Shown piece after piece: positions 5,901 through 53,400 of a DNA stretch of 64,000 nt. The position numbers and the translations under genes are program-made. Location of the stretch: positions 29,397,411 to 29,461,410 of the forward strand of contig CP154954.1 of NCBI GenBank assembly GCA_039621445.1, written 5' to 3'. The notes below the pieces were generated by a model. The model was not told the DNA's origin, made no database searches, and saw only the letters and a list, made by a program, of their open reading frames with translations. Numbering within the stretch: the first letter of the stretch is position 1; each line of letters starts with the position of its first letter. This stretch comes from Euglena gracilis (lineage: Eukaryota).

Positions 5901-6855
5901 AGGTGTGTCATCAGGAGGGAGCTTGTGTGCGGACAAATTAAGGACACCACGCACTCAAACCGCATCTCATTTCAGTTCACCTTGGCCACAAGTTTCTCAA
6001 AGTTCTTGAACTTGTGATGGCTAGAATGGTGTTGAAGCCTTTCCCAACCCCTCTGTTCTGGATGGCAGCACAGGCAACCAGGCCCCTCTCCCTCCCGTGC
6101 CTTCCTGACCCAACTGTCATCCCGCGCTGCTAAATGATACATCGTGGTGCACAGCCCAGGAGGAGGGGGATGCTGGGGGGCTTGTAAACCAACCAGGACA
6201 CCCGGGGCAAGCACACACAGCGCACACCTTTGTTGCGCTGTGTTGCTTTGTTGCGGAATCAGCACTGCTTTACGCGGTAAACCGCCTAACCTCAGTTTTA
6301 ACATTATTCCCAGTCCAGTCCCCTCCATAAGGGTAGATATCTTCATCACAAAAACAAATTTTGCGCGGTTTACCGCCTAACACGTCCCTTTCAGAAATTA
6401 TAGCATCTTTTGGGCAGTGCTGTCTGTTCACCTCCCTAATCACTGGACCTCGGGACTCACGAGATGTTCAAAAATAGGCGGGTTGCTTAGGCGGTTGCCT
6501 CTTCTTCACCTGCCACACCGTGTCACCCCCCTCCAGAGGGGTTCCGGCAGCATCGCCAAACAACCGGGGCTCCAGTGGCCAGGTGTTCTCCCACTGTTCT
6601 CTGTTTTTCAAAATTTCAGGGCGTTCCAGGGGGGTGTTTTTGAAAACCCCCCTAAAATGATCATAAATTTTCAAAATCGCCACATTGTCAAAATGCTTAA
6701 AATGGACCCAGAACGACCCAAATTTTTGTGCTGGTGTCACCCTCTCAAAAGTTTAACCTCAAACAGGTAACAGGTGGGGTATCGTAAGCGGAAACCCGCG
6801 CACCTCAAACGCACAGAAATTGGAAAAAAAAATTGGGCAATTCGCGCGGCCTAAG
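2966..6855. mobile_element. Decayed ~3.9-kb TIR DNA transposon with 5-bp TSD
   Basis: Left end CTTAGGTGGCGCTAATTGCCC..CCAATTTCTG. The reverse complement of the right end is CTTAGGCCGCGCGAATTGCCC..CCAATTTCTG. TTTGT flanks both ends (2961-2965, 6856-6860). Only broken ORFs inside. Confidence 0.7.
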
Positions 6856-7339
6856 TTTGTATGTAATTCCAACTTTGCCATTCACCACTTCAACGCTCTC
6901 CTTTTTTCCCTGTTACCTCCCCCCTGTCATAGCACCGGAAAATATCGACATATTGCACCGAGGGGTGCTTAGACAAGGGGGAGAATACAACGACTCAAAA
7001 AAAAAACAGCGCTCCACCTGAAAAAAAATTCCTTCCATTTTTGTCAATTGCTCAACTTTGAGGCATTTTGGGTGTATAAAGTCCACAACATCTCACCAAT
7101 TAACCTTCGTGAATAAAAATCTTCATAAAAATCTGATAAAAATACATTAGAAAAACTTGCATTCAGGGAGTGGCCTTTAAAAAGATTGTCAAGCACCGGG
7201 GAAAGGGGGGACTGGGATACTCCAGTACTTAGACAAAGAAAAGATTTCTTTCAGGGGAATATTTTGGGTCGATAACCCTCTGGTAGTTTGCGCCTAAAGA
7301 ACCTGAAGCACCAAGAAACTTGGGTGAAAAACTAGAATG

Positions 7340-7505
<166 letters not shown>

Positions 7506-7757
7506 GCAGAGAACTTCTTTGGGCTGGATAGCGCAAATATCTATGGTACAGGAACGGTGGATTTCCCGGAGTCACCCCCCTCAACTGCCTGAGTGGCGCC
7601 AGACAGGCAGGCGATGCACCAACAAGACACAGCCCGCAATCGGACAAATCTACAACCGGTTAAACAAACGCAGGGGAGGCGTCTTTTGCAGAGTGCAATT
7701 GCGGCGGGCAAGCGTTCGGGGCAAAAGGGGGTTGCTTCGCCACCAACCCCCACCCCA

Positions 7758-22700: not shown

Positions 22701-25700
22701 CCCCAATTAGCCCAATACTTGCCAAATCAGTGATAAATAGCCCCCAAATTAGCAAAAATTGACCCATAATGGCCAAAATAGGTGTAAAACTGGAGCTTTG
22801 TGGGAAAATTATCCCAAAAATGGTTCAATTCTCCAAAATATACAAGAAAAATGCCAGCATCGCCCAGCATCGCCCAGCATCGGAACCCCACCTCTGGTCT
22901 CCAAAAATCCAGCATCGCCCAGCATCGCCCAGCATCGCCCAGCATCATCAGAGGTGCTTGGACACAGCTGCGCCCCTCGAAACCAAACACCTTGCATTCT
23001 GGTGGAGCCCTGATCCTTCCTGATCAGGGGTTTTTTTTTAAGACTGGGGGGAGGGGGTCCCCCACCCATCCTCCCCCTGGGGGGGGGGGGTCCCGTGGGA
23101 CCCACTGACTTTTCCCCGAAAAATGGCCAAAGCTCGCGAAAAATGCAAAAATAGCCCCTTTTTCAAAAAAAAATTTGGCGCCTTCGGTGCTGAAAAATAT
23201 ATCCCACTGGGGGGGGGGGCTCAGCCGGACCCACCCACCCTACCCCCCCAAGACCAAAAAACCCCTGTTCCTGATTGTCCCTGGTTGGCAAATTATTGGT
23301 CAGAGGTGGGCGTATGCCAATTAAAAAAATTCACGTTTGGCCGCTTTTGGGCAGCGTTTGGCCAACTTGCCCACTGTTGGCTGCTTCTGGCCACTTTTGT
23401 CTTTGGCCACTTCTGGCTGCTTCCGGTTCCTTTTTGCATATTGGGGTTGGGTATGACCTACAAAATTGGGAGTGTAAATAATGCCCCATGTTGTAGGTGC
23501 CTGCTCATCACATTTTGGGTTGATTGTCAGAATTGTATTTTATATATGGAGTCACAGCATGGTCAGAAGCACAGGGAAAAAAATGTTTTTCCACCTCTAC
23601 ACCTCCAGCTCCTCTTGTTATACTTGCTCGTGATTTATGTGTCACTACACCTTAAAGAACTCCTATGGCTTCACATTTCACAACCACCTTTCTGTTGCAA
23701 ATCTCAGATATGTATATATAGTGTATTAGGAGTATGACTCATCTAGGAGTATAAGAGAGGAGAAAGAGAGAGAATATCTAATATCTTAAAGTATCAAGAA
23801 GATCTAAAAAAAGAGAAAAAAAACTCTGAGAGAAAAGAGAAAAAGAGACTACAGAGAGAAAGAAGAGAAAAAGAGAAGAACAATCTAAGACTATATATGA
23901 GATTCTATAGATATAGAAGCATTAGTGAATAAGAGTATAATCTATAGAAGGAATAGAGCAGAGAAATATTATCTTAAAGAGAAGACACATAAAAGGCAAA
24001 AGAAAAAAATACAAGAGAAAATATGAAAAGGGGAGAGGAAGATAGAGAGAGAGATAACTAGAGAGAGTGAGAGAGGATACCAAACATTAAAAATGATTAG
24101 AAACAAAGAGAAATAGAAACATATCTAAAGAGAAAAGAGAAGAGAGGAATAAGAATATATAGAGAGAGATAATTATATAAATCAGAAGATAAGAATAAGA
24201 GAAATAGAGAGGGAATATAGAATATGAGAGGATAGGAGAAGAATAGACAGGGGAGAGAAAAAGAGAGGAGGGGGGGGTAGAAAAGTTAGAAGAAGACACG
24301 ATGAGAAGAGAATGAGTAGATTAGAAAGAGATCTTTCTCTCTCTGACACAATAAAAAGGAGAGAGAATCTAGAAGAAGAGAAAAGAAGTTTCAGAGAGAT
24401 AAGGACTAGAGAGAGCCCTACGAGGGGGTATAAATATAATATATTTTAAAGATAATAGAGAGATAAAAAAACGAGAAAAGAGAAATAGAGTCGATATTAA
24501 ATAGAATAGAGAAGAAATATTCTATGAATATATTATAGAGATATTATAAGTAAAAAGAAGAAAATATGAGACAAAGAGAGAGTGAGAGAAGTAGGACAAT
24601 CTCTTCTCCTACAGAAGAAGAGAGAGTGAGAGAAAGAGAAGAGGAAGAGAGGAGGAGAGAGAGAGTGGAAAGAGATGAGAAGAGAGAGACAGAGGAAGGA
24701 GAGAGAGAGAGGAGGAGAGGAGAAAGAGGAGGGGAGGAGTGGAGAGGATGGAGAGAAGAGAGGAAAGAAGAGCGGAGAGAGAGGTCGAGAGAGGAGGGGA
24801 GATAAATAGAAAGATTGGGGGAGAGAGGAGATATAAGAGTAAGAGAGAAGGAGAGTCGAGCAGGGAAAGGGATGAAATGAGAGGGGAGGAGAGGGAGACA
24901 GAAGCTAAGAGTTGTAACTATTCGAGAGAGAGGAGGAGAGGAGAAATATAAGAGATATGTAATAGAGATATAGAAGTGGATACAGAGCGATGTCTAGAGA
25001 GAAAAGAGAATGGTATATTATAGAGACATAGAGAGAGGAGAAAGAGAGAAGAGATAGAAACTAGAGAGAGATATATATAATATAAAGAGGAGAACAGATA
25101 TAATAATATAGATATAGATAGATAGAACATGTATAAAGAAATAGAGAAGAGAGAAGAGGAGTATTATATGAGAGTAAGAGAGAGGAGAGAGAGAGATAGA
25201 GACTATATATATAATAGGGAGATAGAGAAGAGTATAATGATATATTGTATTATAATGCGGGGGTATATATATGTATATATATAAGATAGAAAGAGAATAA
25301 AGAAGAGAGAGAAGATATAAAGAGAAAAAGAGAGAAAAAGAGAAGAACTTAGAAAGTAAAATATACTCTATATAAAAAGAGAGAAGACATATATAACATA
25401 TAATATATATACACAGAGAGAATATAATATATATTCTGGAAGATAGAGAATATAGAGAGGAGATAGAGGATAGAAGTAGGCGTAGATAGGGGAGATATAG
25501 GGATATAAACATATAGAGACATAGAAAATAGAAAGAGATAAGAGAAAAGAGAGATAATAGAGAAAAGAGAGATAGGAGATAAGAGAGAAAGAGAGAGAAG
25601 ATAAGAGGGAAAGAAGAAAGATATAATAAGAAAGATATACAAGAGAAAGAGAGGAGGGTAGAGGAGGAGAGAGATATACAGGAGAAAGAGGACAGGAGGA

Positions 25701-28632
25701 ACAGATATAGACAGAGAGAAAGAGAATATAGAAGAGAGGGAGAGGGATGAGTAGAGGAGAGGAGGAGATAGAGGGAGAGAGAAGAGAGAGAGATGGGCGA
25801 CAGGGAGAGAGAGGGACAGAGGGAGAGGGAGGGAGAAGAGGGGAGAGGGAGAGGAGGGGGAGAGGAGAGGAGAGAGAAGAGAGAGAATAGAAGAGAAGAG
25901 AAGAAAAAGAGAAGAGAGAGATAAGGAGAGAAGAGGAGAGAAGATAGAAGAGAGAGAGAGAAAGAGAAGAAGAGAGAGAGAAAAGAGAGAACAGACAGAG
26001 AAGAGAGAGAGGAACAAGAGGAAGAGAGAGAGAGAGAGGGGAGAGACAGGATTAGGAGAGAGTGCGGATAAGAGGGATATAGAGATACATATAGGGAGAG
26101 AGATATGAAGAGGGGAGATAGAGAAATATAATATAGAGAAAGATAGAGATGAAATATATTAGAAGAGATAGAAAGAGAGGACAACAGAGATATATAGATA
26201 TAGAGATAGAGAGATATTATATAGAGATAGATATATACATGGATACAGACTATATATATAATATCGATATATAATATACATATTAATATATAAAGTATAT
26301 GTGTATAGACATATATATATATATATATACATTTGTATGTATATATGTATAAATCTGTATACATATATACATGTATATAATGTATATATATGTATATAAG
26401 TGTATATATATTATATATAATATATATAAATATAATATATATAAAATATAATAAAAATATATAAAATATAAATATATAAATATATATATATATTCTGTAT
26501 ACATGTATAATAGAATGTTTGAGTATGACAGGGGATGATGGGACACGAAGCAAATGTTGTCACTAAAACAAATGCTGTCTCTTGAGTAATATGCTCTCAT
26601 ATATACCCTCACACTCTCAAATTCACTCTCAAATATGTTCATGTGGGGGGCACTGTTGAGCCAAGCAACACTTGCCGGACAACCTGCAGCAAGTGCCGCC
26701 CTTTCAGGTGCTTGAACGGGGAGAGGTGGTCGCCCTCCCCGGCGACCGGCGGCAGGAAGGTGTCGATGGCGTGAAGCAGCCCGTGCTCGCTGTCGAGGGA
26801 GAGGGTCGGCCGTATGGGGACTGGGTTGTGAGGTGTTTGCCATCTGCAGGGATCTGTGAACAGAGCCTGGCCACCCTCATAACGGAACATCTTCGAGGTT
26901 TCTGAGTTCTCCGGGAGCTGGCAGGCAAAATGGGAGTCAAAACTTCATTCGTGCATTCCGCTGCTGAACCACCTCTGTATCATTTCAATGATGCCACAAG
27001 AGACCAGGATGCTCTCCGACAGCAAAAATAAAGAAATTAATAAGTTGTACTTGCAGAATGGTTTCCAATAACGCTGGCCCACTTGGACGTTTGGTGTAAC
27101 CATGCCAAAAACTTTGCCCTCACTTGCAAAAGTTTGGAAACTGTCACACTTGTGACTGTTCCCAAGATGTGTATGCATGCACATGCACACGCACACACAT
27201 ATACACACATGCACACACACACACACACGCACGCACGCACGCATGCACACATGCACGCACGCATGCACACACACATGCACACACACACACGCGCTCACAC
27301 ACACACACACACGACACTGGCTGAGGTGGCCACACAATGTCGCGAAGGCAAGGGAGGCAATGTATCATGAACAAACTTGAGTTGTGAAAAATAAATAATT
27401 GAAGAAGGACCCAGGGAGTTATTGACGACGCCTGACATGAAATTAGATGCAATTCTCTCCTAACACCAACACACAGCACATACAGAAATATTGGAGCCGA
27501 CCCTTTGCAGACCAGGCCTTCGGCAGACGCCGGCTCACCCAACACATGTGAGTCACAGCAGTGGTGTGCTGGTGCACCATCCGGGCCGAGGACACGGCCT
27601 CCGCGGTGGCCGAGGCGCTGAACCGCACCACGCACTTCCCGTCCTCCACCCGGTGGTCGCAGGGCCTCCCCGCCTCCAGCCCCCCCCACGCACAAAAAAA
27701 AAGTAACGGGAAAGGCAGATGAATAAAATGAAGAACACAAATAGAATGCGCCACTGTAGGACATGAAAGACAGATAGTTTGCGTGTGACCTGGCACAGCG
27801 TTCAACGGCCCGGGGCCTGGGCAGAGGTGCACCTCGCCGTTGGCCAGTCCCGCCGCCAGAAGCTTGCCGGTGGGGCTCCACAGCAGCGCCGTCACCTCCG
27901 CCGGGGTCGTCAGCTGGAACAGCCGCTGGAACGACAGCGCGTTGTGCAGGACGGTCCACGGCCGGTCACGCCGCGATGAGACGTGACCCAAAATGACTCC
28001 GATCCACTCACTCCGTCTTGGGGGGGGGGTCAGATCAACACACGTTGCACCTTGCACTCAATTGCCTCCTGAAAATGTGGTGGATGGATCGCAATGCAAC
28101 GCAGCGTTCTCAAGCTACAATATCGCTTTCAGTGGAGCGGCTGGCTAAGACTTACCTGGGGGGGTGGCCAGCATACAATTGCTTACCGACCCCCGGGGGG
28201 GGGGGAGGGGGGTCACTCCACTTTTTTTTAAAAACCAGTCAGTCACTCATTTTCAAAAAACCAGCCAGTCACTACCCCCCCCCCTGGGGGAGGTCGGCCA
28301 CTCAGAAAAACGGCCACTTTCCAGTCACTTTAGGCCATTTTAGGCCCAAAAAAATTTTCGGCGCCGGGGTCACTCAAGCCACTTTTGCCCACTCCTGGCC
28401 GACCCCCCGGGGGGGGGGGGGGGAGGGGTCCGGGCCAAAAACCAGTCAGTCACTCTGAAAAAACCAGTCACCCCCCCGGGGGGGGGGGGGGTTGGTCAGT
28501 GCTTAAGCAATTGTCTGGTGGCCAGCCGGGGGCGATGCTGCTCCGCGCCGCCACGGCGACCAGGTCCATCTCATGGCACAGTGTGACGAGGGAGATCGGG
28601 CCCGGCACGGCCTTGCTGTGGAGCAGCCGCAT
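7758..28632 (-). CDS. APC4: Anaphase-promoting complex subunit 4 (N-terminal WD40, helical domain, C-terminal WD40), roughly 20 or more short exons
   Basis: Exons 28532-28632 and 27823-27953 splice to [77 protein letters not shown], colinear with the ANAPC4 N-terminus as remembered (DLIALANTAGEVLLHRLASFHRVW...LAWRPDGKLLA). Mid exons read [17 protein letters not shown] and [19 protein letters not shown]. The last junction and exon (7758-7855) read [24 protein letters not shown]...AEA*. Several internal junctions are unresolved. Confidence 0.88.
7856..8662 (-). other. Nonconventional (euglenid-type) intron, last APC4 intron
   Basis: t|gcg CAGCCCCCT ... AGGGGGCTG tcgtcc|gt gives a 9-bp terminal stem with N3/N6 spacing. 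Joins in frame as RGTACVAT. Confidence 0.8.
10756..10967. mobile_element. MITE coinciding with an APC4 nonconventional intron (10751-10970)
   Basis: Minus-strand TIR CAGGGCGGTCCGG / CCGCACCGCCCTG. TSD gtgctgcc / gggccgcc (6/8). Removal gives [17 protein letters not shown] in frame. Confidence 0.8.
16488..17289 (-). other. Nonconventional intron following a 13-nt micro-exon (17290-17302)
   Basis: cac|agc CAG gcGAGGCGGCTG ... CAGCCGCCTC cggCCG atccac|aag. Yields VEAALHKLVRR, gap-free against remembered APC4. Confidence 0.65.
17308..17752. mobile_element. MITE coinciding with an APC4 intron
   Basis: Minus-strand TIR CAGGGCGTCGCTT / AAGTGACGCCCAG. TSD gtggaggc / gtagaggc (+ strand 17753-17760 and 17300-17307). 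Internal sequence resembles ~55165-55875. Confidence 0.88.
17835..18798 (-). other. Nonconventional intron of APC4
   Basis: ctc c|gag CAG ... ggCTG ccggc|at gtg. Joins LYLHVTG in frame, with no GT/AG at the ends. Confidence 0.75.
18170..18453 (+). mobile_element. 3' end of a 5'-truncated relative of the non-LTR element
   Basis: TCCGGTAGGGCTGAGC (18172) matches the 56-bp 3' UTR repeat of the full element. The end CGCGGAGCCTGTACATGCCCAGGCA(CCAAA)4 resembles 51781-51824. 5' boundary uncertain and may extend to ~17860. Confidence 0.75.
21805..22480. repeat. 18-bp minisatellite (TGCATCTTGTCCAGCATC)n
   Basis: Over 30 degenerate units. (AGCATCGCCC)n 10-mers lie nearby at ~21419-21447 and ~22856-22946. 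Confidence 0.92.
23025..23267. mobile_element. MITE, TIR CAGGGGTTTTTT, 8-bp TSD
   Basis: TTCCTGAT is duplicated at 23017-23024 and 23268-23275. Confidence 0.9.
23700..26520. repeat. Purine-rich AG / TA low-complexity tract
   Basis: Almost C-free scrambled (GA)n/(TA)n. Probably a long microsatellite with base-calling noise. Confidence 0.85.
27655..27822 (-). other. Nonconventional intron 2 of APC4
   Basis: ctc t|gcc CAGgcc ... ggccCTG cgacc|ac cgg. Joins VHLYRVEDGK. Confidence 0.8.
27954..28531 (-). other. Nonconventional intron 1 of APC4 (CGG/CCG variant)
   Basis: atc gc|ccc CGGctggccac ... gtgaccggCCG tggac|c gtc. About 10 of 11 positions pair. Joins SSIAVLHN. Confidence 0.78.
28172..28517. 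mobile_element. MITE, TIR CATACAATTGCTTA/TAAGCAATTGTCTG, 8-bp TSD, internal CCAGTCAGTCACT repeats
   Basis: GTGGCCAG is duplicated at 28164-28171 and 28518-28525. The element is intronic. Confidence 0.92.
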
Positions 28633-38400: not shown

Positions 38401-41400
38401 ACCGGGGGGGGGGGCATGCTATGGCACTGCTCCCCCCCAAAAAAAGAAGCCTGCCCCTGACCCCTGTGAACCCACCCCCGACCAGCCCCTCCCCTGGACA
38501 GAAACGAGTTCTCTGAAACTCACAACTTGGGGGAGCAGTCGTAATCTGCCTCCATCCATCCACCCACCCACTTGCTGGACATCGCGCTGGGCACAAGGGA
38601 TGAGTGGCCGGGTGAAACCGATCCAGGCGTTTGCAGAAACCCAGGAGATCGCTTCACGTGACTGAATGGATTGCTGAGTAATGTGGCATTTTGGCCGGGG
38701 GGGGGGGGGAAAGAGGCCAGCGTCCTGCCACGGCACTTCGCCACATGATCCCGCGCCTCCGTGAACAGCTGCAGGCGGTCCAGGGTCGCCCCGGCATCCA
38801 CGCTCAGCCGCTCATACTCCTGTAGCGTGGCCTGAGCCACGCACAGGGGCCAGGGGTGTGGGCAGTGGCATACACCGCAAGCCATCGCACAACACCCCTC
38901 AGGGTGCATCACACAATATTGGTGGAAAAAACTTGCACAAATGCTGTTGCCTTGCACACGGTCAAGGTCAACCTTTCTGTTTCAGTGAATGAGATGCAGT
39001 TGTACTTAGGATCATACAATTGCTTACCGACCCCCCCGGGGGGGGGGGCACTCCACTTTTTTAAAAACCAGTCAGTCACTCATTTTCAAAACGCCAGCCA
39101 GTCACTACCCCCCCCCCCCGGGGGGTTGGGGGTCGGCCACTCAGAAAAACGGCCACTTTCCAGTCACTTTAGGCCATTTTTGGCCCAAAAAATTTTTCCG
39201 GCCTTCGGCGCCGGGGTCACTCAAGCCACTTTTGCCCACTCCTGGCCGACCCCCCCCGGGGGGGGAGGGGGTCCGGGCCAAAAACCAGTCAGTCACTCTA
39301 CCGTCAGCGGGGCTACCACCGCTCGACGGTGCCCTATCCTCTGTGGGATGAGGTGGTAACCACTTTGTGGTGAACGGGTGCACAGCCGGTAGCGTTGTAT
39401 CTTTACCTGTCCTGCCTGTTCCTTCTTATCCCTCCCCCTTCTCGCTCCGGAACGGCCCTTGGTGCTTGAGAAGTGTCCCAAGATTTTGGGTGGAAAATGG
39501 AGTGTCTGGCTCTTTCCCATATTGAATCTTTTGGTTGGACACGTTAAGGAATGATTGCTGCCAATCTTTCTATGTGTGCCATACGCGGGATGTGCCTATT
39601 CATGGCAGAACATATGAACTCCTGTAAGCCTAGTTGTGATAGCCATGTACGTATTGATGGCAAATCACAAAAACAAAACAAAACAAAAAAAACTTTTTTG
39701 ACAAATGATATTGACATGTCTGGTTATTGGAAAACACACACAAAAGAAACAAGCCGATAGTCCCATTGGTTATTTGTGCATGGTACGAGAAGCATGGGTT
39801 GTGACGTGTGAGTGTGTGTGTGCGCATGCATGTGTACTATTTTATATCCAATATATATATATATATATATTGATTTTTTTTCCCTCACTTCCAAAGTGAA
39901 TGCCTTTTTTTTTTATCCTGTCCCTTCCCATCTCAAAATGACGTTGGAAGATGGTTAACCCACTGGAATGTGTATGACCATCTTCATTTACGTATGTTTG
40001 GGCTTGCCAAATCTTGAAAAGGAAAACATAAGAGGATGTCTTTCTTCTGGCTCCATTTTCTATGTCCAGCTTGCTTATTTTTTATTTTATTTTATATTGG
40101 TTTTCTTATTTTATATTATTTTTTTATTTTATTTTCCTTCCCCATTCGTGTTTTCTCTGTCCAGGGATCCTCACACGTCCGTGCTGGCCGAGGCCAAAAT
40201 GTATCCGTGATTTTCTGTGAATTTCCGTGATTTTCCGTGAATTTCCGTGAATTTCCTGTTTCCGGAAAAGGTCAAAGGCCACATTCCATTCTGCACTGGA
40301 GCCATATTTGGGCGGTTGTGGCAGCAGATCGTTTCTCCATAATATAGTCCTGGAGATCCCCCAGTTCCTATTCACACCTGTATATGAAAAAAAAAACGTA
40401 CAGGAGGGGAAAAAACAACCTTTTGTCCTTGAATTTTTTTTTGATTGCCCCTAAATGGGTTGCCAAAACCCTGTCAGCAGACCGATATAGCGATTGACCC
40501 TTCCGCATGCAGCCTGGGCGGGAAGGTGGAAAGTCATAAAAACCAGACGCCCTCAACTTGTGTGTATTTTTGGAGAACACCTCTGATGCTCTCGAGGTCC
40601 AATTTTGTGACCGGGAGACCAGAATGGAGGAAAACGGCCACAAAATCATCTGTGATTGTCTGGGTGAGGTTTCGCTTAATTCACCGACTCCCGAAAATCC
40701 AACTGCTTCAGTGGAGTGTCCTGGCTAGGAAGAAAAATTACAAAAAAATGAATTGGACGACATTGTCTGTTTGGAAAGGCAGAGAATAAGCAAAGCATCC
40801 CATCAAAATGTGTCTGCACAAACAAAACACATTCAAAGAAAGACCAATTTTTTTTCCCGAACCCTCCTCCTCATCCGTGAATTTCCGTGATTTTCCGTGA
40901 TTTCCGTGAAAATGGCCTTCCGCCCATTTCCGTGATCCTCCGTGAATTTCCGTGAATTTCCTTTTCAGGACGTGTGAGGATCCCTGCTCTGTCCATTCCC
41001 TTTCCCCATGTGTTGCAGCCATTGTTCACCCGTTTATGTTTCGGCATCTTCACAGCTCTTCCCGACAGTTTGATGGCCCACTTCACGGCATTGTCGCTGG
41101 AGGAGCAAGCCTTGGCGGCTTCCCCAAAGACAGCCTTCCCGATTATGTCAGTGGGGAAAGCACCTGACACCAACGAAGTAGTGGTGTCAGCTCGCATCTA
41201 TTCCTCAAAAAAGGAAGTGCACCGTATTCCAGCATCATCGGGACCATGCCTCTCCTCAGTAAATTACCTCTGCATTGGCCCTCCCTCTCCATTTCACTCA
41301 GAAACACACACTATCTCATATTCATATTCACACTCACACATGCGCGCCTCTCCCTCTCTCTCTCTTATCTCTTATCTCTTCTTCTGGTTTCCATTTGTTC

Positions 41401-44400
41401 TCCCGCATTTTTTTTGCATTTTTTAGTAGGGACTCACTCCACGGTTGGGCACAAAAAAAAACCCAAAAAATCCCTCCGACGTTGTGCAATAAGGTTTTTT
41501 TTGGGTTGTTGTTGTTGTTGTTGTGTTATTTAACAATTGATAAATTATTATTTATTGTAATAATAATAATAATATTATATTATTATTATATAATAATAAT
41601 AATAATATATAATATAATTATAATAATATCATTATATTACAATATTTATATACATTTTTTATATAATTTTTTTTGTTATATATGGTTTTATATATTATTA
41701 TATATTATTAGATATATTAGGTTATTATTAATTTTAAATATAATAATAATTACAGGTTTCCGCAGGGGCTGTTTCCCCCCCTTGATATGTCGACAGAAGG
41801 GAACCCTGCCCCCTGTTAGGCAACCTTAAGTGGCCCTCCACAGCATGGATGACCAACACACCTGCTAGATGAAAAAGTTATGAGCGTGTTCACGAGGTAA
41901 GACCGGAATGATTTTCTTTTTCTCCCCCTCTGAGAGTTGATGTATGGGCCGGATTACTTCGCTCCATCAGTCTTTGGTGGCCCATGATCACTGGCGCTTT
42001 ACCAGCAACCAGCATGGCCACTCTCCATAAGGGTTTGCCAGCTCTGGGAGTGGAGTCTTGGAGTGATGTACTTGCTATACTCCTGATGCACTACCCAGGG
42101 TGGGATGAAGAGAAAAAACTGGTTTTTCAGGCTGAGGTTGCTGATGAGTCTCCCGACGTCGAAGTGGCCAATACACATGTTTGCCTGAGTTACATTGTTC
42201 TGTTTATTCCCCCCCCTAAGCTTGAATGTATTTCGTACATAGGTTATGTATGTAGTGTGGGATTGCTTGTTGTTATCTTGTTTGCTTGTATGTTCCCCGT
42301 TTTCCCCTTGAGGACAACAAAAGCCATCCCATTTCCAAAAAAAAAACGGATAAACAAAACGAGTCTGTCCAATCGCATTTCTGGATACTCCACACAAATT
42401 TCTTTTTCCAATTTTGTGTTGTCTCTCAACACAAGGGTGAGCTTCATATACAATATAATTAGTTGTTGTTCTTTTTTCCATCAATGCATATATAAATTTA
42501 TTGTTACTAGCAGTATCATTAGGTTTAGTATTATCTTTGTATTCTCATACTGATGATTTATGATCGTATTTGCAGTTTTTATTCTACAGTTCTTCAACAC
42601 CACACAGTTTACATATTTGAGCTCAATCTAGATTGTGTCAATCTAGAGAGTTTTTCTCTGCCATGCATCCTCCCTTTCTGGTTTTCTTTTCCTTTTTTCT
42701 TTGTTTTTTTTAAGCTACAACGAATGAAGTTTTCGATGGGTTTAGTCAAACATTTGGCAAAAATACCTGCTGAATCTGCCCCATGAACAATTTATGAAAC
42801 TGATTTTGAATGGCAGTGGCAAGGAGAAAGAGAAAGACAAAGATCGACCGAAGACCAAACTTTTGATGCTGATCATATGGTATGCGGTGTACAGTTGGGT
42901 ATCCAGATCATTGAACAAGCAACCGGTGTATGGGTTGAAGATCTCTGAAGATGAGAGTGTTCCAGATTCTCCTTTGAGCCCTGAGGATTGGGCCAAGCTC
43001 GTCAAGGCTGTGGTTCAGCAAGTCAAGGCTCCGCCAGATTGTCCAGGGGTGCTCTCTCATTTTTTGGTTGGAAGGGTTCGTTTGATTATTGTTTTAATTT
43101 ATAAAAAAAAAAAGAAAAACCAAATCGATTTTTTTTTATTGCCTGCGTTGTTTCAGCAAAAACCTGACACTAGGGGGGTCCCCCCCTACTTCCCATGCCT
43201 TCTCCTCTTTTCCCGAGCATTTTATTGGGGACTCAACGACCAGATTGATTCAGGTGGTGGGTGCCTCAGGTTGTGTTTGCCATAAAATGCTTTTTTTTTC
43301 GTGATCAGAGAGAATATGTCTGTTCCTGGGAGAAGGTGATGAAGCCGCAAGATAGATCATCCATTTCTGCGGTGGCTTCGGGTGCCTCTTGGCGGTCGCT
43401 TCTGCTTCCCTCGAGTCCCGCTCTGTCTAGTTCTTGTCTGGTTTTTTCCTTTTTTTTTGGTCACACTCTAATGTTTGATACAGTTATGTTGTGGTGGGGG
43501 GAACCATTAAGTTTATCACGTTTGTCTGCTTAGAGGAAAAGCATACCAAAACACAAGAAGTAATGAAGATGAGAGCCACTTATAGGTGTAAATAGCAAAG
43601 AGCTTGTCTGCAGACTTGCCCCTTTGCTAGAGTTGCTAGAGATGGCTAGGGAGTTACTGGAATTTGCATGCTTTTGTTTATTCTTTCTACTCTATGAGTG
43701 CATTCGGTTTGCCATCGTTTAGTAGGGTTATTGTGGGGGTACTGCACTTTTTCTTTTTGGGAGCTTGACAGCATTTGGCATTCAAGTTTCATGTGTGTCC
43801 ACTATGGACACAATTTTAGAGGAGGTCTTGTTTTTACCTGACATCATTGTACCTCAAGCCAGTGCGGCATTGAGAGAGCTTCTCATCGAACATCAAGCCG
43901 GATCCTCGAACCTGCGCGCTCTTGATGGCATCCGCCTTCTGCAACAACTTCAGATCGCGCTTCGACAAGTGTGGTCCAAGGTCACCACCAGCCAACGTTT
44001 GGCGCTGCTTCGCATACTTGTTCTTCCTATCGGTTTATTCTTTAAAGTTTCCCATATCTATTGATCAGTCTCTTTTGGGCACACATATACCCCCCATCTG
44101 TGAGGAAGTGTGGTGGAGCCAGTGAAATCCCGGACATACGGACATGGCAAAAACGTCATGGGAGGGGGGGGGCACACTATCCTCTCGACCAACGGCCGTG
44201 CTCAAGTTTTTTTTTTATTTCATTATTTATGTACTCCATTTTATTTGCGGCTGTTTCGTTCAGATTTTTTGTAAGAATTTAACAAGGCACATATTGCAGT
44301 TTCCAAAAAAAGCATGGGGTTTTTTTAAGACAAAGGAGGATACATATGAGTGGAAAAGCAAAGGCATGTGGTCATTTTAAGAATACCGTTTACCGTTGAA

Positions 44401-47400
44401 AAAGTGTTTCTGCAAATATGTTTAATCTTCCTTGAAGTGTCAAGTTCAAGGCTTTGGATTTCATTTTTATCAACCTGGTTTTTTTATTGCGGCTGTCGTT
44501 TTTCTTGGTTCTTCTTTTTTTGTTTTATTATATGGCATCCGGTTTTTGCGGTTTTTCTTTTGGGAAGGGCAGGATACAATAATTGAGTGTGTAAAGTAAA
44601 GTAGTCGAGGTGGTGCAGGTTGAGCTTTTAAGAAAATATTTTTCGTTTTTTACCGTTAATAGGCTGTTTGAAAAAGAAAATATTTTTCGTGTTTTACCGT
44701 TAATAGGCTGTTTGAATCCTTTCCTTTGCCACCTTACAAAGGTTTGTCGGTCCACAGTGGGTGTAGTTTAGGGTCAAGGGCATTGTGATGATCATTTATT
44801 TGGTTTTTTTTGGTTTTTATTTGTTTGTTTTTTTTTTCTATTTGGTTGTTGGTCTTGTTTTTGGAACCCGATGCAACCTGGTTTCCAACATGGGACTTCG
44901 GTGGGTTGCACTCTGTTGTTGATCTTCCTACGCTTCGGGCTGCTTTACTGGGCCTGGTCAGAGGGATTTCCTCAAAAACCCAATTAAAAGCCTTCCAAAG
45001 GCTTGTGGAGGAGCATCTTAGGAAACAACTTCCCTCTACGTCTGCAGACCACAGCGTTCAGGCTTTATGTTAGGTTAATTTTAAGTTTCTGTTTGTTTGT
45101 TGCGTTTTCCCCCTCCCCCCCCCCATTTTCGTTGTTCTTATCTCTCTCTTGTTTTCTAATTTTTTGTTTTTTTTTTTTTTTTTTTTTTTTTTTTATTTAT
45201 GGAGCCTGCTGAACCTGATTGGTTTCTGCAAGGTGAGCCCACAACGCTGTCCCATCTTCTCCAATCCTCCTCGACTCTCACGGGAGCTACAGAGAGTCCT
45301 CGTGTTGCTCCCACCGAAGGACAGGAGCGTCCCAAGCCCTCATGGACCGTCAGACCGCTGGAAGAGCAGCAGGGCTCCGTGGTCCGTGTTTTGAATTTAT
45401 CTCGTCAGTTCAGTCCCATGGCGTACACAGAAGCTTTGAGGGAGGTTTTGGATTCTATGGATGTGGTCACGCCAATGAACGTTGATCGTGGTTTTTGTCA
45501 CGTCACGATTCCATGTTATAAATATCGCGAGTTATTTCGGACTTCTGACATGGCGGAAGTGAAGTTGGCTTCTGGGTTATCTTTCAGAATCCGTGGGCGC
45601 ACTCCAGAAGGGGAACCTTACATCGATTTTCGGAGTTCCGCCGCGAAAAGACCCAGGATCGAGGCCGGATCCCGTCCACTTCTCTCGCCCACTTCGTCAA
45701 CACCAGTACTAGCACGTGTTGGTGTGCATCCCATCCCGAGTCCCCCTCCGACTCCGCCGTCATTCTCACGTTCCACGGTTGACTCTTTCGCGAGTTCGCC
45801 TTTCGCCAAATTACCAGCCTCTTTGGATGATATCATGCCGGTTTTCACACATTATGCTCCTGATGTTGGTCGTTTCTACAATTGGTTGTGGATCCCTCCT
45901 CTTCCTCCGGCAGCCTACATCCCCCAGGATTTCCTTCGTCTTTTTGGCCCCGCCATAATCAGCACAAATAATCAGGTCAAAGTTGATTTCCTCAAAGAAA
46001 TAGTGCAGAGATTGGATTGTGTGGACAACCATGGTTTCTATTTTGAAAAGACCTGCGATGCCAAGGGATGTTGGAATTGCGGGTCTGTTTTTTCGGCTGA
46101 TAGTTTGTGTCCGGGCTGTTTGAGTAGTTCGTTTTTCTATATTCCGTGCGACACACAAACAAAATCCTTAATGGGTAATGTGGATGGGTCGGATGCTTTG
46201 AAATTCATCCTCAAAGGGCTGCAACAGACCTCAGCCACTTGGTCCACCATGTTGTCGTCGGTGGCGAGCAAATGGGCTAAAATTCTCCTTAGCAGGCCTC
46301 GCCTTCTGTCGACGGGTGGGGTCTACGTGTCCCCTCCTATCATCAATGATGATGCCTTTTTGGTGTTCTTTTCGATTCCCAAGGATATGCCTCCTCCTCC
46401 CAATTTTCCCATCCCTCCCCTGACCAATGAGGAAGTGCGGTGCATATACTCTTCTTTGTGCTCACAATGTGGAAGGCCCAAGGCAGAAAACATCAAAATT
46501 CTGACAAACACACTGCCTTTTTTTGTCAAGAGTGCGTTGTGCATCCGTTTGGATAAGGGACAAACTTCTGCCAACAAAGTTTTTGCTCAACAGTCTCGTT
46601 GGAATCCTTATGGTCTTCCCCTGGAATTTGTGTTACCAGTCACTCCTCGTTTTTCGTTTGACTGCAACCCGGAACAGCCACCGCCCCCTGATCTCAGGTT
46701 TTGGGTGAAGGAATTGGATGCAAAACTGCCCCCGCTTGTTGATGTCACCAATACTCGAAATCCTGGTTGTTGGAGGATCATGGATTTGAATTGTGGGGGT
46801 GGTTCCTCGCTACCTGCGGTTTGTGATTTGATGTCACTTTTGGATCCAGACTTCATTTTTCTTCAGGAATTGTGGGAGACCGACCCTCGGGACGAGATTG
46901 CTTTTCGCCGATATGTTATATTCCTCAGTGCATTCCGTGATCGTGGTCAAGGCTTGTGTATTATGGTGCATCGAAGGGTGTTGTGTCCCAATTCTGCATC
47001 GAGATCCTCCCCTATGATTCTCCATGATTGTAGATCTTGGTTAGCTCTGGGGTTTCACGTGGGTTCTTCATCTTTCCTTTTGATCAATGTGCATCTTGAC
47101 CCTTCTTTCAACATGAAACAAAAGGTGGAGGAAATGCATTTGATGGGTGCCTTGATTCATAAGTCCAAAGCAGGCTGTCTGGTGGCGGGTGATTTCAACA
47201 TACACCGGACAGCACATTCGTTGATGGAACACTCAACACGTGCTTTCGGTGTCCCGGGTTTGAGGATACCGTATCCTATGGGGCTCCACACAAATCACAC
47301 ACGAGCAGGTAATCGGCTTTCCGACACAGAGATTGATTATATATATGCAAGTGATTTTTTCCCCCTCAAGTGGCATGGCCTGATTCCGGGTCCGTCTTCC

Positions 47401-50400
47401 CATGATTGTGTGGTTAACGACCTCATTATACCACATGTTTTTTCTAATTCTCCTTCCTGGAAGAGGTATCAGTTTGCTAATGTCCCCGCTTCAAAAATTC
47501 AACAGGTGGCAATACTTTTGTCATTTTTCTGGTTTTGGTTGCGTGGTCAAGGTGCACATCCCAATTTGTGGCTCCGTGTTTACTGGTTTTTGGCTGATAG
47601 AGTTTTTGCTCCCTATGATCAACACTCCTCGGCTAAGTCTCTCATACAATTGGGGTTGGCATGTGCCGACCGCCGCTCGAGTGATCTTCTCATGCAATGG
47701 CGGAGCAAATGTGTGGAGCATCGTTTTTTGGCTGGTTTGCAACTCAGCCATGAAGTCGCTTTGCAAATCAGCCCAACCTCCTTAACAACAAAATTGATCA
47801 ACACATGTTCCAAAAAGCCGGGGCCGTATCCCAAATTAGCTTCTGGCCGGGGGGAGGATGGGCAAACTGGCAAGACTTCGGAAGAGGAAATCATCAGTCA
47901 ATTTAAAATGTATCATGCCAATCGGGGTTTATCCATGAATGTGGGTCATTTGTATGCAGACCTTGATGTGGTATCAAATCTTCCACAGGATGATCCCTCT
48001 TTCTTTCATCTATTTGAGGCCCGTCGTGAAGGGTTATGGAACAATGATCTCATGAGTCGGCGCCTGCATCTCTTGGCTCGGCCAATGTGACGCTTTGATT
48101 CCATCCGAGGCATCACAGAGTCTCTGCGTTGCGGAGGTTCCAATGCCACTTCATTGGATTCGCTCCCCATGGCAGTTCTACAGCACTTTACCTTGGCAGG
48201 CATGGTGGCTTTGAGCCATTATGTGTTTCTTCTACGGGGTCTCCCAAAGGCTCTGAGCAATGAAGTCATTCAATTGGCCATTCCCAAGGGTGGTCCACAA
48301 CATTTGTTCACTTCCTATCGGCCCATCAAACTCGGATCCGCCATAAACCGTGTGGAGGCTGGGTCAGTTCATTTAGAGGCAAGTTTTCGCGCTGAAATGG
48401 ATGGTTCTTTCACATCCAACCTCTACTCTTATCGGAAGGAAGTGACTCCTTTTATGCTTGCCTTTGCATTAAGGTCCACAATTTTGCTGTGTTTGAAGGA
48501 AACATCAGAGGCCCACATTTTGGATGGTGATGAATCGGGAGCTTTTGATACTCCTGTTCGGGAGGATTTGGCATTGTTGGATCATATGTGGAAAGGCCAA
48601 TGTGCTTTTGGTAGTTGGGCTCATCGATTTTACGCCACCCAGAGAATTCGCCTTCTAACACATGAGGGTTTGACACAACCGATGAAGACAGGGGATGGCC
48701 TGTCACAAGGTTGCAAATTTGCCCCGACCGCTTACAACCTAATTGGCGTTGGGAGGAACATAACCTTCATGAAATCATTTCAAAGTACGTTGTGTCACAA
48801 CGGCTTACCCCTATGTGAATTTATCTATAGTGACGATCGCCGATGGGTCAGCCCCTGTGCGAATGATTTGGCTATTGCGGCACGAGTTGCGAATGCTATC
48901 TCACAGGAAGCGTGTGCAATCAATAACTTGCAAAAAATGAAGTATGTTGCTTTGAAACGCTGTGCTGATGGTTCCATTTGTACTTTTCGAACCGAAGTTG
49001 CCATCAATGATCAGTGGGTGCAGTCTGTGTGTGAAATTCCTTTGATGGTGGGGTTATCAATGCAACCAGGTGCTATAAATCCTTCCCTACTCCCCAGAAT
49101 CAAAATTCGCTTACAAAAATTGCGGCAATTCATAAAGAAATTGAATCCAAATTTCCTGTTGACTTTACGTTGTACAATAGCGTATGCGATATCAATACTG
49201 GATTATTCCTCCCGGGGCTGTTTTGTTCCATCATCAATTTTGATGAAAGTACAACCTTTCCTTAATCAAGTAATAAGTGCATGCCTTTCCTTCCCCCCAG
49301 ACACCCCCATTTCACTGATGACTCTCCCCATGGCACATTTTGGTTGGGGCTTTCCAAATGTGACTCATCGAGCCCGACTCCAATTTATTTTGGGTTACTT
49401 CGAAGCAATCGATGGTAGGAACAATTTGTGTAGATTCGTGATGCGTCAATCTAGGGATGACTCCGGTGTGCAGAGTGACTATGCTTTGATTCGTTCTTTA
49501 TTTACCCAATATGATCTCTCCGAGGTTGTTCCAGCCTCATTTTTTTCCCCATGCCTACCCAGCCTTTGCCTTTCACTTCAGCATGCCTCCGTACTATATA
49601 TCACAACGGATGCTTCGCTAGTCTCTCTGCAGGATGGTGTGTTCGATCTTCAACGAGCGGGGTTGGGTGTTGTCATCACGGATGGCATTGTTTATCAAGA
49701 GATCTCGTGGGGGTTCTGTTCCGTGGCAGCTTGTTCCACTGATCTGGAATGGATGGGGAAGCTTTTGGCAGTTTGGTTGGTGCGCTTCTTCCGGGGCAAG
49801 ATAGTACTGTTGTGTGACAACTCATCCGTACAACTTTGCAACTTCACACAATGGGTGAAAGTCTCTCCTTGGGTGGACCGTTGGGCAAAGATGATTTTGG
49901 GTTTGCCGGTTTGGGATCATATCACGGAGGGGTGGCTTCAGGCGGAACACGATTCACTCTCTCAAGGATTGGCATGTTCGTGGCAGAAACGGGCAGATTA
50001 TTTGGCTGGTTGGGGCTCAACTCATGTGGAATCGGCTGGTTTCCCTTTGGCTGATATGCTCTCTTCTCTGGCGGACCCCCCCTTTCCTTTGTTTTGGATG
50101 GAAGGCTTGATCGTTTCCTTGAAGAGATTTGTGACCAAGCTCTACGAACTGTGCACTTTCCGTGATTCAGTCGCTTTCGCCACCCTGAATGCTGGTGCCT
50201 TTGTCGTCTGATTTGGAAAAAGTTGGTTTTATCAAGTGATGTTCCATTGGTCATGCACAAAGTGGCAGCCTACCTGCGTGCTGTGCCCTTTTTGTCTCGG
50301 AGTGCTCATTACAATGTGGAATGTCGGTTTTGTCATGCCGAGGTCGGTTTTTTGCCCAGGCACATTGTTGGATGTGTGGGATTGTATGAAGTATTGATCA

Positions 50401-53400
50401 AGGCTTTCTCGGAGGTCCTGCAAACAGTATCAACAGGTTCACTGGGTTCAATACTGGAAAGGTCGGACTTGGCTGCGGTTCTGCAATCTCAAAATGAGAG
50501 GTGGGTCATTGCACTTCTTCCTGAAGAAAACGTCGTCCGTGTGCGTCATTATATAAAGAAAAAAGGTTTCCTTTTGCTGTGTGTTACATGGTCGGGCCTC
50601 ATCAGTGTACCACATCGATTGAGTATGCTTTTCTCCACAAGTGTTCGTTTGGAATTGTGTGCCATAGTATTACGGACATTATCAGCTGCCCCACGAGGAT
50701 TCTTCACAACATCAGATATCGACATTCCACCGCACACCAATTTTCGGGGTTTGGTGGGTTGGTCAAGCAACGACGCACGTGGGTGCCAACCGTCTTTCCG
50801 GGTCCAACGGAGGCTCGCATGGATCTTGCTTGCACAATTTGGAGGGTGGTCGTTTGTGTTCTTCTTCTCGTTCCTTGTCGGTATACCTCCCCCCCCCCGA
50901 TGTTTGTATCCACCTGACCTATTTGATGTAAGGGTTTTTGCTTGTGATGTTAACCATTGTTTTGTCATCTCTAACCATCCTGGGAGAGGCCCTGCATGCG
51001 TGCTGTGTGATTGCCACATAACAGCTCCCTCGTATTGGCATCTCCATCGCTCCTATTCCGAAGGTGCGCTGTACATCTCAGCAGACTTCGGCTCATCGCC
51101 CCTCTAACCTCCAACACAACGCTTCGATCAGGGTGCTCCACTTCATGTGTTCTTGTGTATGTCTGTAGCTCATGTATCCTCTTCCCCCCCTATTCATCTA
51201 CCATCGCTATGTCAAGCACCAAGGGCATGCGCACTTGCTCATTAACCTCTGCCATGGTGTGCTATACACACTGCGATGTACCGTACGGCGATGTACCCTC
51301 TGCAATGCGATTTTATGGATTGCATCGTTTTGGTTGGTGCTGCCCTCTTTCCACCCTGGTCCGACGTGAGTGGTTGTGATGTTTGGGTTGACTCTTTCCG
51401 CTCTCGTTTGGTAGGGCTGTGTTTGTGCTCGAGTTGTTTGTGCTGCCCCCTTCCCGCTCTCGTCCGGTAGGGCTGAGCGTGTGCTGGTGTTGTTCGTGCT
51501 GCCTCCTTCCCGCTCTCGTCCGGTAGGGCTGAGCGTGTGCTTGTGTTGTTCGTGCTGCCTCCTTCCCGCTCTCGTCCGGTAGGGCTGAGCGTGTGCTTGT
51601 GTTGTTCGTGCTGCCCCCTTCCCGCTCTCGTCCGGTAGGGCTGAGCGTGTGCTTGTTTCGTTCGTGCTGCCCCCTTCCCGCTCTCGTCCGGTAGGGCTGA
51701 ATTGTTATTTTATTTTATTTTATTTTATTTTATTTTTCATTTTCCTTCCTTCCCGCAATAAATGCTAAATAAGCCCCTTTCGCGTTGCCTGTACCCGCCC
51801 AGGCTCACCAAACCAAACCAAACCAGTCAGTCACTCTGAAAAAACCAGTCACTCACCCCTCGGGGGGGGGGGGGGTCGGTCAGTGCTTAAGCAATTGCCT
51901 GCTTAGGATGCCAATCGATGAGAATATCCTCTTGTAACCTCAAAATAACCTCAAAATTGCACACCCAAAGAGAGGATTGGAATCGACCTTGTCAAAGCGC
52001 TGCTACTCACAAAAAATAGCAATCGGTTCGGAATCATGGTCCTATCTCTTAGAGGCTGGCTGCTTCCCTCAAATAAAGCGCATCACAACGGCTATTTCAG
52101 AAGCACCAACGTTGATTGCAGCTTGCACACTGACCGTTAAAATTTGTTCGAAACAAAAAATGGGCGTAAAGCTGCCACACCCAGATTTTTTTAGGACCCG
52201 GGAATATCCCGAGGGGTCCAAAAAATCTCAGCGCTTCGCACCAAAAATAGAGGAAATCCCCCCTGGGGAGAGGTTTCACTCTCACTCAGTCCGAACCCCC
52301 CCCTGGGCCTTTAAATTTTAAAAAATCTCTGGGCTGCCAAGAACAGAACGCAGCCCAGCAAAACCTTCTGCGCCTCGGAGAGGATGGGCTCGCTCTTCCT
52401 CAGCAGCTCGGCGCTGGCACACGCCTCTGCCAGGGCAGAACGGGAAGGCCTGGTGGGGGGGTCGACCCCCCCACCCGGGAGGTGGGGGGGGGTGGGTCAA
52501 CCCCCCCACCCACCACAGCATTTGCACCAATTTCGGGGAAACGGGGATTTTGGCCAGAAAAATTTTTGCTTCTTTTTTGAAAAATGAACCCAAAACACAT
52601 GATTTTTTGATGGAAAACCACATTTTTTTCACAAAAAAATCTCAAAATTTTCCGTCCTAAAAACTGGGACTTTTTAGGGGGGGAAACGAAGGTCAAAAAA
52701 AGTGGACAAAATTTTGGCACAGTCAAATTTTACTGACATTTTTTCTCGTTGAACTTTTTTGGACTTTGAATAACATTTTTTGCTTCAAAAACCTCTCAAA
52801 ATCACCCTCTTGAGAAAATGTCAAATTTTTTGAAGGTGTGAAAAAATGGGGTTTTGGGTGGGACCCCCTATGTGGGTCCCAAAATGGGTCAAAAAAACAC
52901 CCGGCACCGAAGGCGCCGAAAAAATTTTTCGTGTCCAAAAAATTGGTGCTCCCGGAAATACAGGAAGAGGTGGGAGGGCCGCCTCCCCCCCCCACCCACC
53001 ACTCTGGCTGTTCGGCCGATTCCCGTTCTGCCCTGGCCTCGGCCCAGAGCTTCTTGGCCGCCTTGCAGTTCCCCTTTTCCACCTCTGCGGGGTACTGGGC
53101 CACGGCGACCTCCAACCGGCTGGCACTCTGCGGAGAAGGTCCGGCCCGGCCTCGCCATGCGGAACCCTCCCTACCCCCACTACGCCAAACCTGCGGGAAG
53201 CGAACCTTCGGAGGCGTCCAGAAGGGGAATGAATGAAATCCAAAGCAGACGGAGCCATGGGACTGGCAACACTTTCTTTGCGCTCTCGGCAAAGCAGCAG
53301 GGGCGATAAGGCAAAACAGAGGTATTTTTTAAAGGACCCGGGGTTCACTCACCCAGCACCCAGGCCCCCTGGGGGGCTGGGAGAGCCCAATTTCAAGGAT

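Follow-up and report, generated by a model that had tools for sequence, protein, structure and literature searches.

Retrotransposition is the textbook route of intron loss, and a gene split by introns inside a long interspersed nuclear element (LINE) would be unusual because copying through RNA normally erases introns. Whether such an element exists is the question raised by a locus of Euglena gracilis, situated in a stretch of 64,000 nucleotides of contig CP154954.1 (positions 29,397,411 to 29,461,410, assembly GCA_039621445.1). This whole stretch is called the window, and all positions below are counted within it. An initial annotation, made from the letters alone, had described a retrotransposon without long terminal repeats (non-LTR) in which an apparently intron-containing gene precedes the pol gene. 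That proposal stood as regards the single insertion, the conserved gene in pieces and the multi-copy state of its interruptions, and found no support for two of its four splice junctions. We consider it probable, at roughly 0.58, that the window holds a copy of a LINE family with an intron-split upstream gene, which transposes with the introns in place.

A single insertion of a multi-copy LINE-type element

Both ends of the element adjoin an identical 18-bp sequence (39282-39299 and 51820-51837), which was recognised by alignment and by direct reading as a target-site duplication. The 18-bp target sequence was present once, at 28439-28456, in an uninterrupted repeat copy at 28172-28517. Self-comparison of the window matched the left flank (39013-39299) to 28172-28456 with 87% identity and the right flank (51820-51901) to 28439-28517 with 92.7% identity, and a third copy of this target repeat, at 60891-61215, was also unbroken across the insertion site. 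Other copies of the repeat continued past 39299 in 20 and 29 reads and in 173 contigs. Because the duplication flanks it and unbroken copies of the target repeat exist, 39300-51819 (12,520 bp) is a single insertion. The self-comparison of the window gave neither direct nor inverted repeats at the element's termini. An X15 contig begins at 39303, three bases inside the 5′ end, and the 3′ end holds a (TTATT)6 run and an AATAAA motif in addition to its repeat tail. The distance of about 5.9 kb (39300-45198) annotated between the left duplication and the pol start was confirmed with its coordinates.

The pol gene begins at an ATG at 45199, directly behind a 39-base T tract, in an open frame of 976 residues (45160-48090). 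Residues 544-745 matched Pfam Exo_endo_phos (E 3e-10, 40.7 bits, cut-off 24.5), an apurinic/apyrimidinic (AP)-type endonuclease. The following part (48091-50211) matched RVT_1 with E 0.013 and 15.7 bits, under the cut-off of 29.6, and the R2 reverse transcriptase structures 8gh6/8ibw of the PDB weakly (E 0.26). YSDD and TDAS motifs were seen by eye, and three relatives of the reverse transcriptase part were obtained among 5.8 billion clusters, namely P0001 (46%), P0002 (39%) and P0003. A fold prediction of reverse transcriptase and RNase H from five rows was poor (predicted local distance difference test, pLDDT, 34). The motifs seen by eye, together with the source's name for P0001, suggest an RNase H-like end of pol, for which no match was obtained in Pfam, PDB sequences or NCBIfam.

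Residues 994-1079 of the relative P0011 matched 50214-50471, in a frame differing from that of its residues 2-978. Because P0011 continues in another frame from 50214, the alignment points to a frameshift in the pol gene of the window copy at about 50170-50213. The TGA at 48088-48090 was likewise private to this copy, since C at 48088 (CGA) was present in all four contigs of DNA run X6 and in the sole X15 contig. With a private stop, a frameshift and a nested miniature inverted-repeat transposable element (MITE), the window copy is therefore defective, while the family has a long pol frame.

The AP-type endonuclease, the target duplication, the repeat tail, the lack of long terminal repeats, and many copies with fewer 5′ than 3′ parts identify 39300-51819 as a copy of a multi-copy non-LTR (LINE-type) retrotransposon with a divergent reverse transcriptase, whose RVT_1 match lies below the cut-off. 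A Penelope-like element was not indicated; Exo_endo_phos was the sole endonuclease match and terminal repeats were absent.

Copy number was read from Logan contigs of run X6, about 86% of which was read and which is possibly the window's own source; its depths are summed values on a scale not calibrated to single-copy depth. Depth was 5317 at the 5′ end (bin 39604-40007), 2400-7400 over 41220-45259, except for 811 at 44048-44451, and 7000-21000 over pol. Distinct contigs numbered 5, 6 and 11 at positions 42813, 43940 and 44897, and 4-11 at single positions across the element. The 5′ region, for which the initial annotation had expected many copies if it belonged to the element, was thus found multi-copy by depth and by 5-11 distinct contigs at single positions. 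The three sequences that interrupt the upstream gene (stretches 1 to 3, Table 1) shared this behaviour. One contig inside stretch 2 (42370-42533) was identical to the window at depth 1600, another inside stretch 3 (43130-43297) differed by one letter at depth 1412, and exact or near-exact contigs with depths within 1400-1600 were also observed inside the fourth intron of the initial annotation. Bins consisting mostly of an intron candidate had a depth equal to that of exon bins, and no joint removing an intron candidate from DNA was present among the joints listed (15 of 35, the remaining 20 being weaker). Because depth is level over gene and interruptions, the entire 5′ part, interruptions included, behaves like a single repeat unit somewhat less numerous than pol; the lower value relative to pol fits 5′ truncation.

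This level depth bears on the idea that the gene region is a separate nested element (about 40987-45150), for instance a DNA transposon whose ordinary gene contains introns, inserted into the 5′ untranslated region (UTR) of the LINE in a subfamily ancestor. A 5′ part of 5.9 kb is very long for a LINE, and a nested DNA element, the MITE, does adjoin the gene. Its perfect terminal inverted repeat of 19 nt scored 19 against a shuffle maximum of 11. It carries 10-bp subterminal repeats but no transposase, and is flanked by the direct repeat CTCTGTC (7 bp, or 7/8), compared with the 8-bp duplication expected for hAT elements; the first bases of its inverted repeat presumably resemble hAT ends. Its depth in X6 was 3.1-3.5e5 against about 5e3 around it (60-fold), with loose ends at 40162. 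The MITE was also seen in RNA reads of runs X21 and X24 (same species label, raw reads, read to about 5-6%), and many internally deleted variants appeared as joints. A nested DNA element with its own inverted repeats, which the initial annotation had overlooked although it named such an element as counting against its proposal, therefore exists, but it comprises only 825 bp and lies upstream of the gene. The gene region itself proved to have neither terminal inverted repeats nor a duplication around it; 78 inverted pairs were obtained, and the 25 longest are of low complexity except that of the MITE. Depth was continuous from the 5′ terminus through the gene, with no separate copy number, and the gene shares strand and codon use with pol. 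A separate nested element is accordingly judged very unlikely.

The upstream gene and its relatives

When 1.84 billion representatives were searched with block 3 of the upstream gene, seven relatives were obtained (E 4.6e-27 to 5.3e-9, 42-57% identity), and a profile search with alignment A4 added one more, P0014. All eight were located on ENA, JGI or Logan contigs of 610-2694 bp; scans of metagenome, genome and viral contigs for the relatives' DNA found no relative. P0005, a single open frame of 317 residues, matched the window blocks in order and without gaps. Its residues 56-109 corresponded to 41082-41243 (61%, E 2.6e-15) and its residues 103-182 to 41933-42172 (54%, E 2.9e-24); 42761-43030 matched with 43%, and block 4 from 43309 was placed by alignment A4 with 46% over the aligned columns. 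P0014 begins with Met at the position matching ATG 41073, the first ATG in its frame, and spans blocks A and 2. P0004 and P0010 were continuous from block 2 into block 3, and P0004-P0008 from block 3 into block 4. At the protein level the relatives are without the three intervening stretches, exactly and in frame. In these alignments the collinear match of four blocks is far beyond chance, and the relatives show that the upstream region holds a genuine, conserved protein gene, divided into four pieces or more.

The gene model differs from the initial one at both ends. Exons 2, 3 and 4 of that model proved real by their relatives and codon scores, whereas its exon at 41880 and its block 43772-44064 found no support. 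The first exon had been placed at ATG 41880, followed by a 38-base intron at 41897-41934. In P0005 and P0014 the 50 conserved residues of the N-terminus correspond to 41073-41223/41243, about 800 bases upstream; because the conserved N-terminus is encoded there, 41880-41896 lies inside an intervening stretch of about 700 bases. In block 4 the likeness to relatives ended at about 43440, the open frame continuing to its stop, and in all five relatives that extend this far (P0004-P0008) the likeness gave out at about one place, to within some 8 residues. The fourth proposed junction (43415-43771) falls in this zone and found no support, no relatives being found downstream of it. For 43772-44064 there were none among 1056 candidates of 169-2000 residues and no usable Atlas match, and none were found for 44870-45073. 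Within this distal stretch, 44048-44451 was rare among copies (X6 depth 811 against 3000-7000 alongside), in other copies 36 different letters replaced 44267-44522 (depth 1722), and four contigs diverged after 44010. A tandem repeat of 44 bp x 2 (97% alike) occupies 44630-44716, before the last 5′ block.

Codon use was scored with a model trained on pol and conditioned on sense codons, with 543 frames outside the element as control. Per codon, block 2 scored 0.135 (top 0.9% of control frames), block 3 0.193 (top 0.4%) and block 4 (43309-43413) 0.105 (top 2%), compared with 0.133-0.14 for pol and -0.06 +/- 0.085 for the control frames. The intervening stretches had negative scores in all frames, and 43772-44064 (top 10%) and 44870-45073 reached only the top 10-15%. 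An antisense frame at 43837-44034 with a score of 0.179 was judged a chance occurrence among about 100 frames. Differences between copies were taken from the rows listed, 40 of 367. In blocks A and 3 together, 8 of 13 listed differences were synonymous in the proposed frame (3/5 in block A, 5/8 in block 3), against 1/13 and 2/13 in the other frames; all five blocks gave 9/16. With an expected synonymous share of 0.22-0.28, the P value for 8/13 was 0.002-0.012. By this measure the upstream gene is still under selection within the element family.

These results leave little for the view that the blocks are chance open frames in a T-rich spacer and that there is no gene. Frames of about 100 codons are common here (antisense 41999-42544 has 181 codons), and the splice argument discussed below is at chance level. 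For blocks A, 2, 3 and 4 the view is refuted, since relatives with E values down to 4.6e-27 match the four blocks in order; it may apply to 43772-44064 and 44870-45073. As an explanation of the locus it is hardly credible.

No domain had been recognised in the upstream protein by the initial annotation, and this was upheld: no Pfam match at E <= 1 beyond chance level was obtained for the window blocks, P0004-P0008 or P0014. Profiles of the known LINE ORF1 types (L1 ORF1p/Transposase_22, zinc-knuckle, esterase, PHD) did not match. In the protein, a run of charged residues (Lys, Glu, Asp) precedes a hydrophobic helix that is conserved and rich in Trp and Tyr.

Table 1. Features of the element and its surroundings, in window coordinates
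Feature	Position	Strand	Basis
Left target-site duplication	39282-39299	+	matches 51820-51837
Whole inserted element, 12,520 bp	39300-51819	+	flank matches to unbroken repeat copies
5′ terminal non-coding part, presumed 5′ UTR and promoter	39300-40161	+	without pol-like codon frame; gene-like DNA depth
Nested hAT-like MITE, 825 bp, not part of the element proper	40162-40986	.	terminal inverted repeat, direct repeat, depth
Coding block A, likely start ATG 41073	41073-41223	+	P0005 and P0014 matches
Intervening stretch 1, intron candidate, 713 bases	41224-41936	+	P0005 and P0014 continuous from block A into block 2
Coding block 2 (exon 2 of the initial annotation)	41937-42178	+	P0005, P0010 and P0004 matches; codon score
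Intervening stretch 2, intron candidate, 567 bases	42179-42745	+	P0004, P0005 and P0010 continuous across
Coding block 3 (exon 3 of the initial annotation)	42746-43048	+	seven relatives; codon score
Intervening stretch 3, intron candidate, 260 bases	43049-43308	+	P0004-P0008 continuous across
Coding block 4	43309-43533	+	alignment A4; codon score; stop 43531-43533
Stretch holding the further blocks 43772-44064 and 44870-45073 of the initial annotation	43534-45159	+	without relatives; middling codon scores
39-base T tract immediately before the pol start	45160-45198	+	
pol, first part: N-terminal region of 540 residues containing Cys motifs, followed by AP-type endonuclease	45199-48090	+	Exo_endo_phos match
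pol, second part: reverse transcriptase, then RNase H-like end	48091-50211	+	weak profile matches, relatives, motifs
pol, C-terminal part in another frame, with Cys-His motif	50214-51107	+	P0011 match
56-bp tandem repeat, 5.5 copies, 94% alike, 3′ untranslated part	51394-51700	+	
Short repeat tail of 5-base units, element 3′ end	51806-51819	+	
Right target-site duplication	51820-51837	+	matches 39282-39299

Interruptions, splice sites and competing explanations

The three intervening stretches are candidates for spliceosomal introns. In a protein-guided junction search, GT 41224 to AG 41936 was the only GT..AG solution near the end of likeness at site 1; the stretch so delimited contains the first exon of the initial annotation and AT-rich repeats at 41546-41719. 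At site 2 the acceptor at 42745 was fixed by an in-frame TAG, and the donor may be 42158, 42164 or 42179. At site 3 the joint of the initial annotation was one of several that fitted. Site 2 was also a point of breakage in the relatives: the likeness of P0014 ends at this point, which is where P0006 and P0009 begin, and the likeness of P0007 starts there after residues typical of translated T-rich DNA. At the protein level, this end of P0014's likeness and the beginning of P0006, P0007 and P0009 within a few codons of the site indicate a shared intron position. Because these four relatives also break there, the site-2 interruption is old and common to the relatives, predating the divergence between proteins of 38-54% identity. 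Terminal inverted repeats bounding the intervening stretches did not exceed shuffles, while the MITE, used as control, was clearly positive; DNA transposons or introner-like elements were rejected as the nature of the stretches by this lack of inverted repeats. On balance we favour, by a modest degree, a gene split by at least three introns of spliceosomal type, at about the limits given in Table 1, which would be removed by splicing.

Several results weigh against an intron-split gene that transposes with its introns. The dinucleotides at the four junctions of the initial annotation were as written in the sequence, but its argument from phase-compatible GT-AG joints was no better than chance: when the ends of likeness and the nearest stops delimited where donors and acceptors could lie, a stop-free, phase-compatible solution at all three sites backed by relatives was obtained with 207 of 256 arbitrary dinucleotide pairs. 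At site 1 a GA start at 41242 fitted the relatives slightly better than GT. Donors at the intron candidates were weak, and pyrimidines made up 0.55-0.62 of the 40 bases preceding the acceptors, a background level, since the 277 AG dinucleotides in the region gave 0.52 +/- 0.12. A fold predicted for the upstream protein from P0005 with 11 rows was poor (pLDDT 49), and the contigs of the gene relatives may stem from either RNA or DNA. The depth scale of X6 lacks single-copy calibration, as stated, and its contigs are too short to show linkage between the gene and pol, which was seen in the window copy only. Five of the seven pol relatives listed lie on contigs of 0.33-2.1 Mb, none of which is a listed source of a gene relative. 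As to RNA, no spliced read or contig was seen. Of the 139 and 158 reads placed from runs X21 and X24, almost all fell on the flank repeat or the MITE; depth on the gene was 0-0.36, and no joints were present there. One X24 read and one X15 contig were unspliced over proposed boundaries; the X15 contig extends from block 3 25 bases into stretch 3, and one RNA read was unspliced near 43751. None of the runs listed as containing the sequence is recorded as RNA. Because RNA cover of the gene was almost nil, the missing spliced reads are uninformative rather than negative.

The chance level of GT-AG and phase, the weak donors, the ordinary pyrimidine tracts and the lack of spliced RNA are also what would speak for a broken ORF1. 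According to this explanation the ancestor was uninterrupted like P0005, the stretches of 713, 567 and 260 bases were never spliced, and the copies are non-autonomous relics moved by others; damage elsewhere in the window copy (the stop at 48088, the frameshift and the MITE) would agree with it. However, the synonymous excess and the pol-like codon use persist in the blocks, and the stretches are without bounding terminal repeats or duplications. The interruption at site 2 is common to relatives that are only 38-54% identical, and three independent insertions would be needed, all with stop-free, phase-compatible joints. We regard a broken ORF1 as quite unlikely.

A further explanation is a captured host gene, in which an unspliced pre-mRNA or a read-through transcript was joined once to the element, by 5′ transduction or template switching, and then amplified as a passenger. 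The initial annotation had offered pre-mRNA capture in a single event. As a one-off this is unlikely because the gene region is multi-copy, and what is left of the proposal is capture with later amplification. Pol may need no upstream gene, because it has an N-terminal region of its own, 540 residues with Cys motifs, and its own ATG after the T tract. On the long contigs its relatives start with the endonuclease, and no such contig is listed as the source of a gene relative; LINE chimeras with other RNAs are reported (PMC13174262). On the other hand, the region occurs on 5-11 distinct contigs with a depth like that of the element's 5′ end, its codon use equals that of pol, and the differences between copies are mostly synonymous, whereas a passenger is not expected to remain under selection in the copies. 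Nor was any relative a named protein of an annotated proteome, the three JGI entries being 'hypothetical protein'. A captured host gene is unlikely, with some claim to attention.

The preferred reading, a LINE with an intron-split gene of its own, could work as follows. The full-length unspliced transcript would be the template reverse-transcribed at the target, so that the introns would be copied along, and a spliced fraction of the same transcript would be the messenger for the upstream protein. Weak donors would leave much of the RNA unspliced, as in retroviruses. The relatives would then include both unspliced forms of related elements and spliced ones (or ones reinserted after splicing). 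The upstream protein would be the accessory (ORF1-like) protein of the element, a label suggested by position, co-amplification and selection. For the translation of pol, 4 kb downstream, the T tract before its ATG could be a site of internal entry, of re-initiation or of leader addition. We give about even odds to the fuller statement that this is an AP-endonuclease LINE in which the gene at the ORF1 position belongs to a new protein family and has at least three spliceosomal introns, the element multiplying unspliced and expressing the gene after splicing.

Known systems and further observations

The ORF1 of AP-endonuclease LINEs (L1, I, Jockey, CR1) is uninterrupted and of known types. Like these LINEs, the window element has its endonuclease and reverse transcriptase behind an upstream gene of the same strand, a target duplication of the variable-length kind, copies in which 5′ parts are scarcer than 3′ parts, and a repeat tail at the 3′ end. 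It differs in that its upstream gene is split and in that the protein and its eight relatives are without a Pfam family. A balance between unspliced template and spliced messenger, with weak splice sites, is found in retroviruses and in LTR retrotransposons with a spliced downstream gene, such as the plant element Ogre. Those are LTR elements that splice to reach a downstream gene, whereas the window element is non-LTR and its introns would lie inside an upstream gene.

Penelope-like elements are described, in passages of PMC8557442, as 'highly unusual among retroelements' in keeping introns after retrotransposition. The likeness lies in genomic copies that keep spliceosomal introns, as those of the window element would. 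Penelope-like elements have a GIY-YIG endonuclease and pseudo-LTRs, and their reverse transcriptase is telomerase-like; the element found here has an AP-type endonuclease, a repeat tail and an 18-bp duplication. The cases described in those passages have one intron, in the 5′ UTR or between parts of an open reading frame, whereas at least three are proposed here, in a separate upstream gene. The spliced integrated retrotransposed elements (SpIREs) of human L1 are reported as evidence for splicing of LINE RNA, new copies preserving the spliced state (PMC5860796). In L1 this splicing is cryptic and yields dead copies, needed sequence being removed; the window element would need splicing for gene expression, and its unspliced form is proposed to be the one that multiplies. 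No AP-type LINE with an intron-split gene was found in a literature search of incomplete coverage.

If the reading is correct, unspliced RNA can routinely be the template of target-primed reverse transcription, with implications for the place and time at which LINE particles are formed. Intron retention would extend beyond Penelope-like elements, and retrovirus-like balanced splicing would occur in a non-LTR element. The locus would offer a natural system for comparing the spliced and unspliced fates of one RNA, and a new protein family would join the short list of LINE accessory proteins. A 5′ part of this kind would be called a host gene by gene finders and overlooked by repeat maskers.

The target repeat family (28172-28517, 39013-39299 with 51820-51901, and 60891-61215) consists of C-run/G-run palindromes and CCAGTCAGTCACT units. 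It was the most abundant sequence seen, with a depth of about 8e5 in X6, and its transcripts were present in both X21 and X24, in the latter with strand bias. Ten long frames elsewhere in the window had no Pfam family; an Rfam search gave no match, and a dinoflagellate spliced-leader motif had none within three mismatches. The two top pol-like codon scores of the 543 control frames, 0.563 and 0.282, belonged to 7287-7589 (+) and 22013-22498 (-), both without Pfam match, which may be remnants of related elements. At 24001-26000, overlapping a minus-strand open frame of 513 codons without Pfam match, strand asymmetry was extreme, with a GC skew of 0.74-0.85 and an AT skew of 0.54-0.58 at a GC content of 0.36-0.38.

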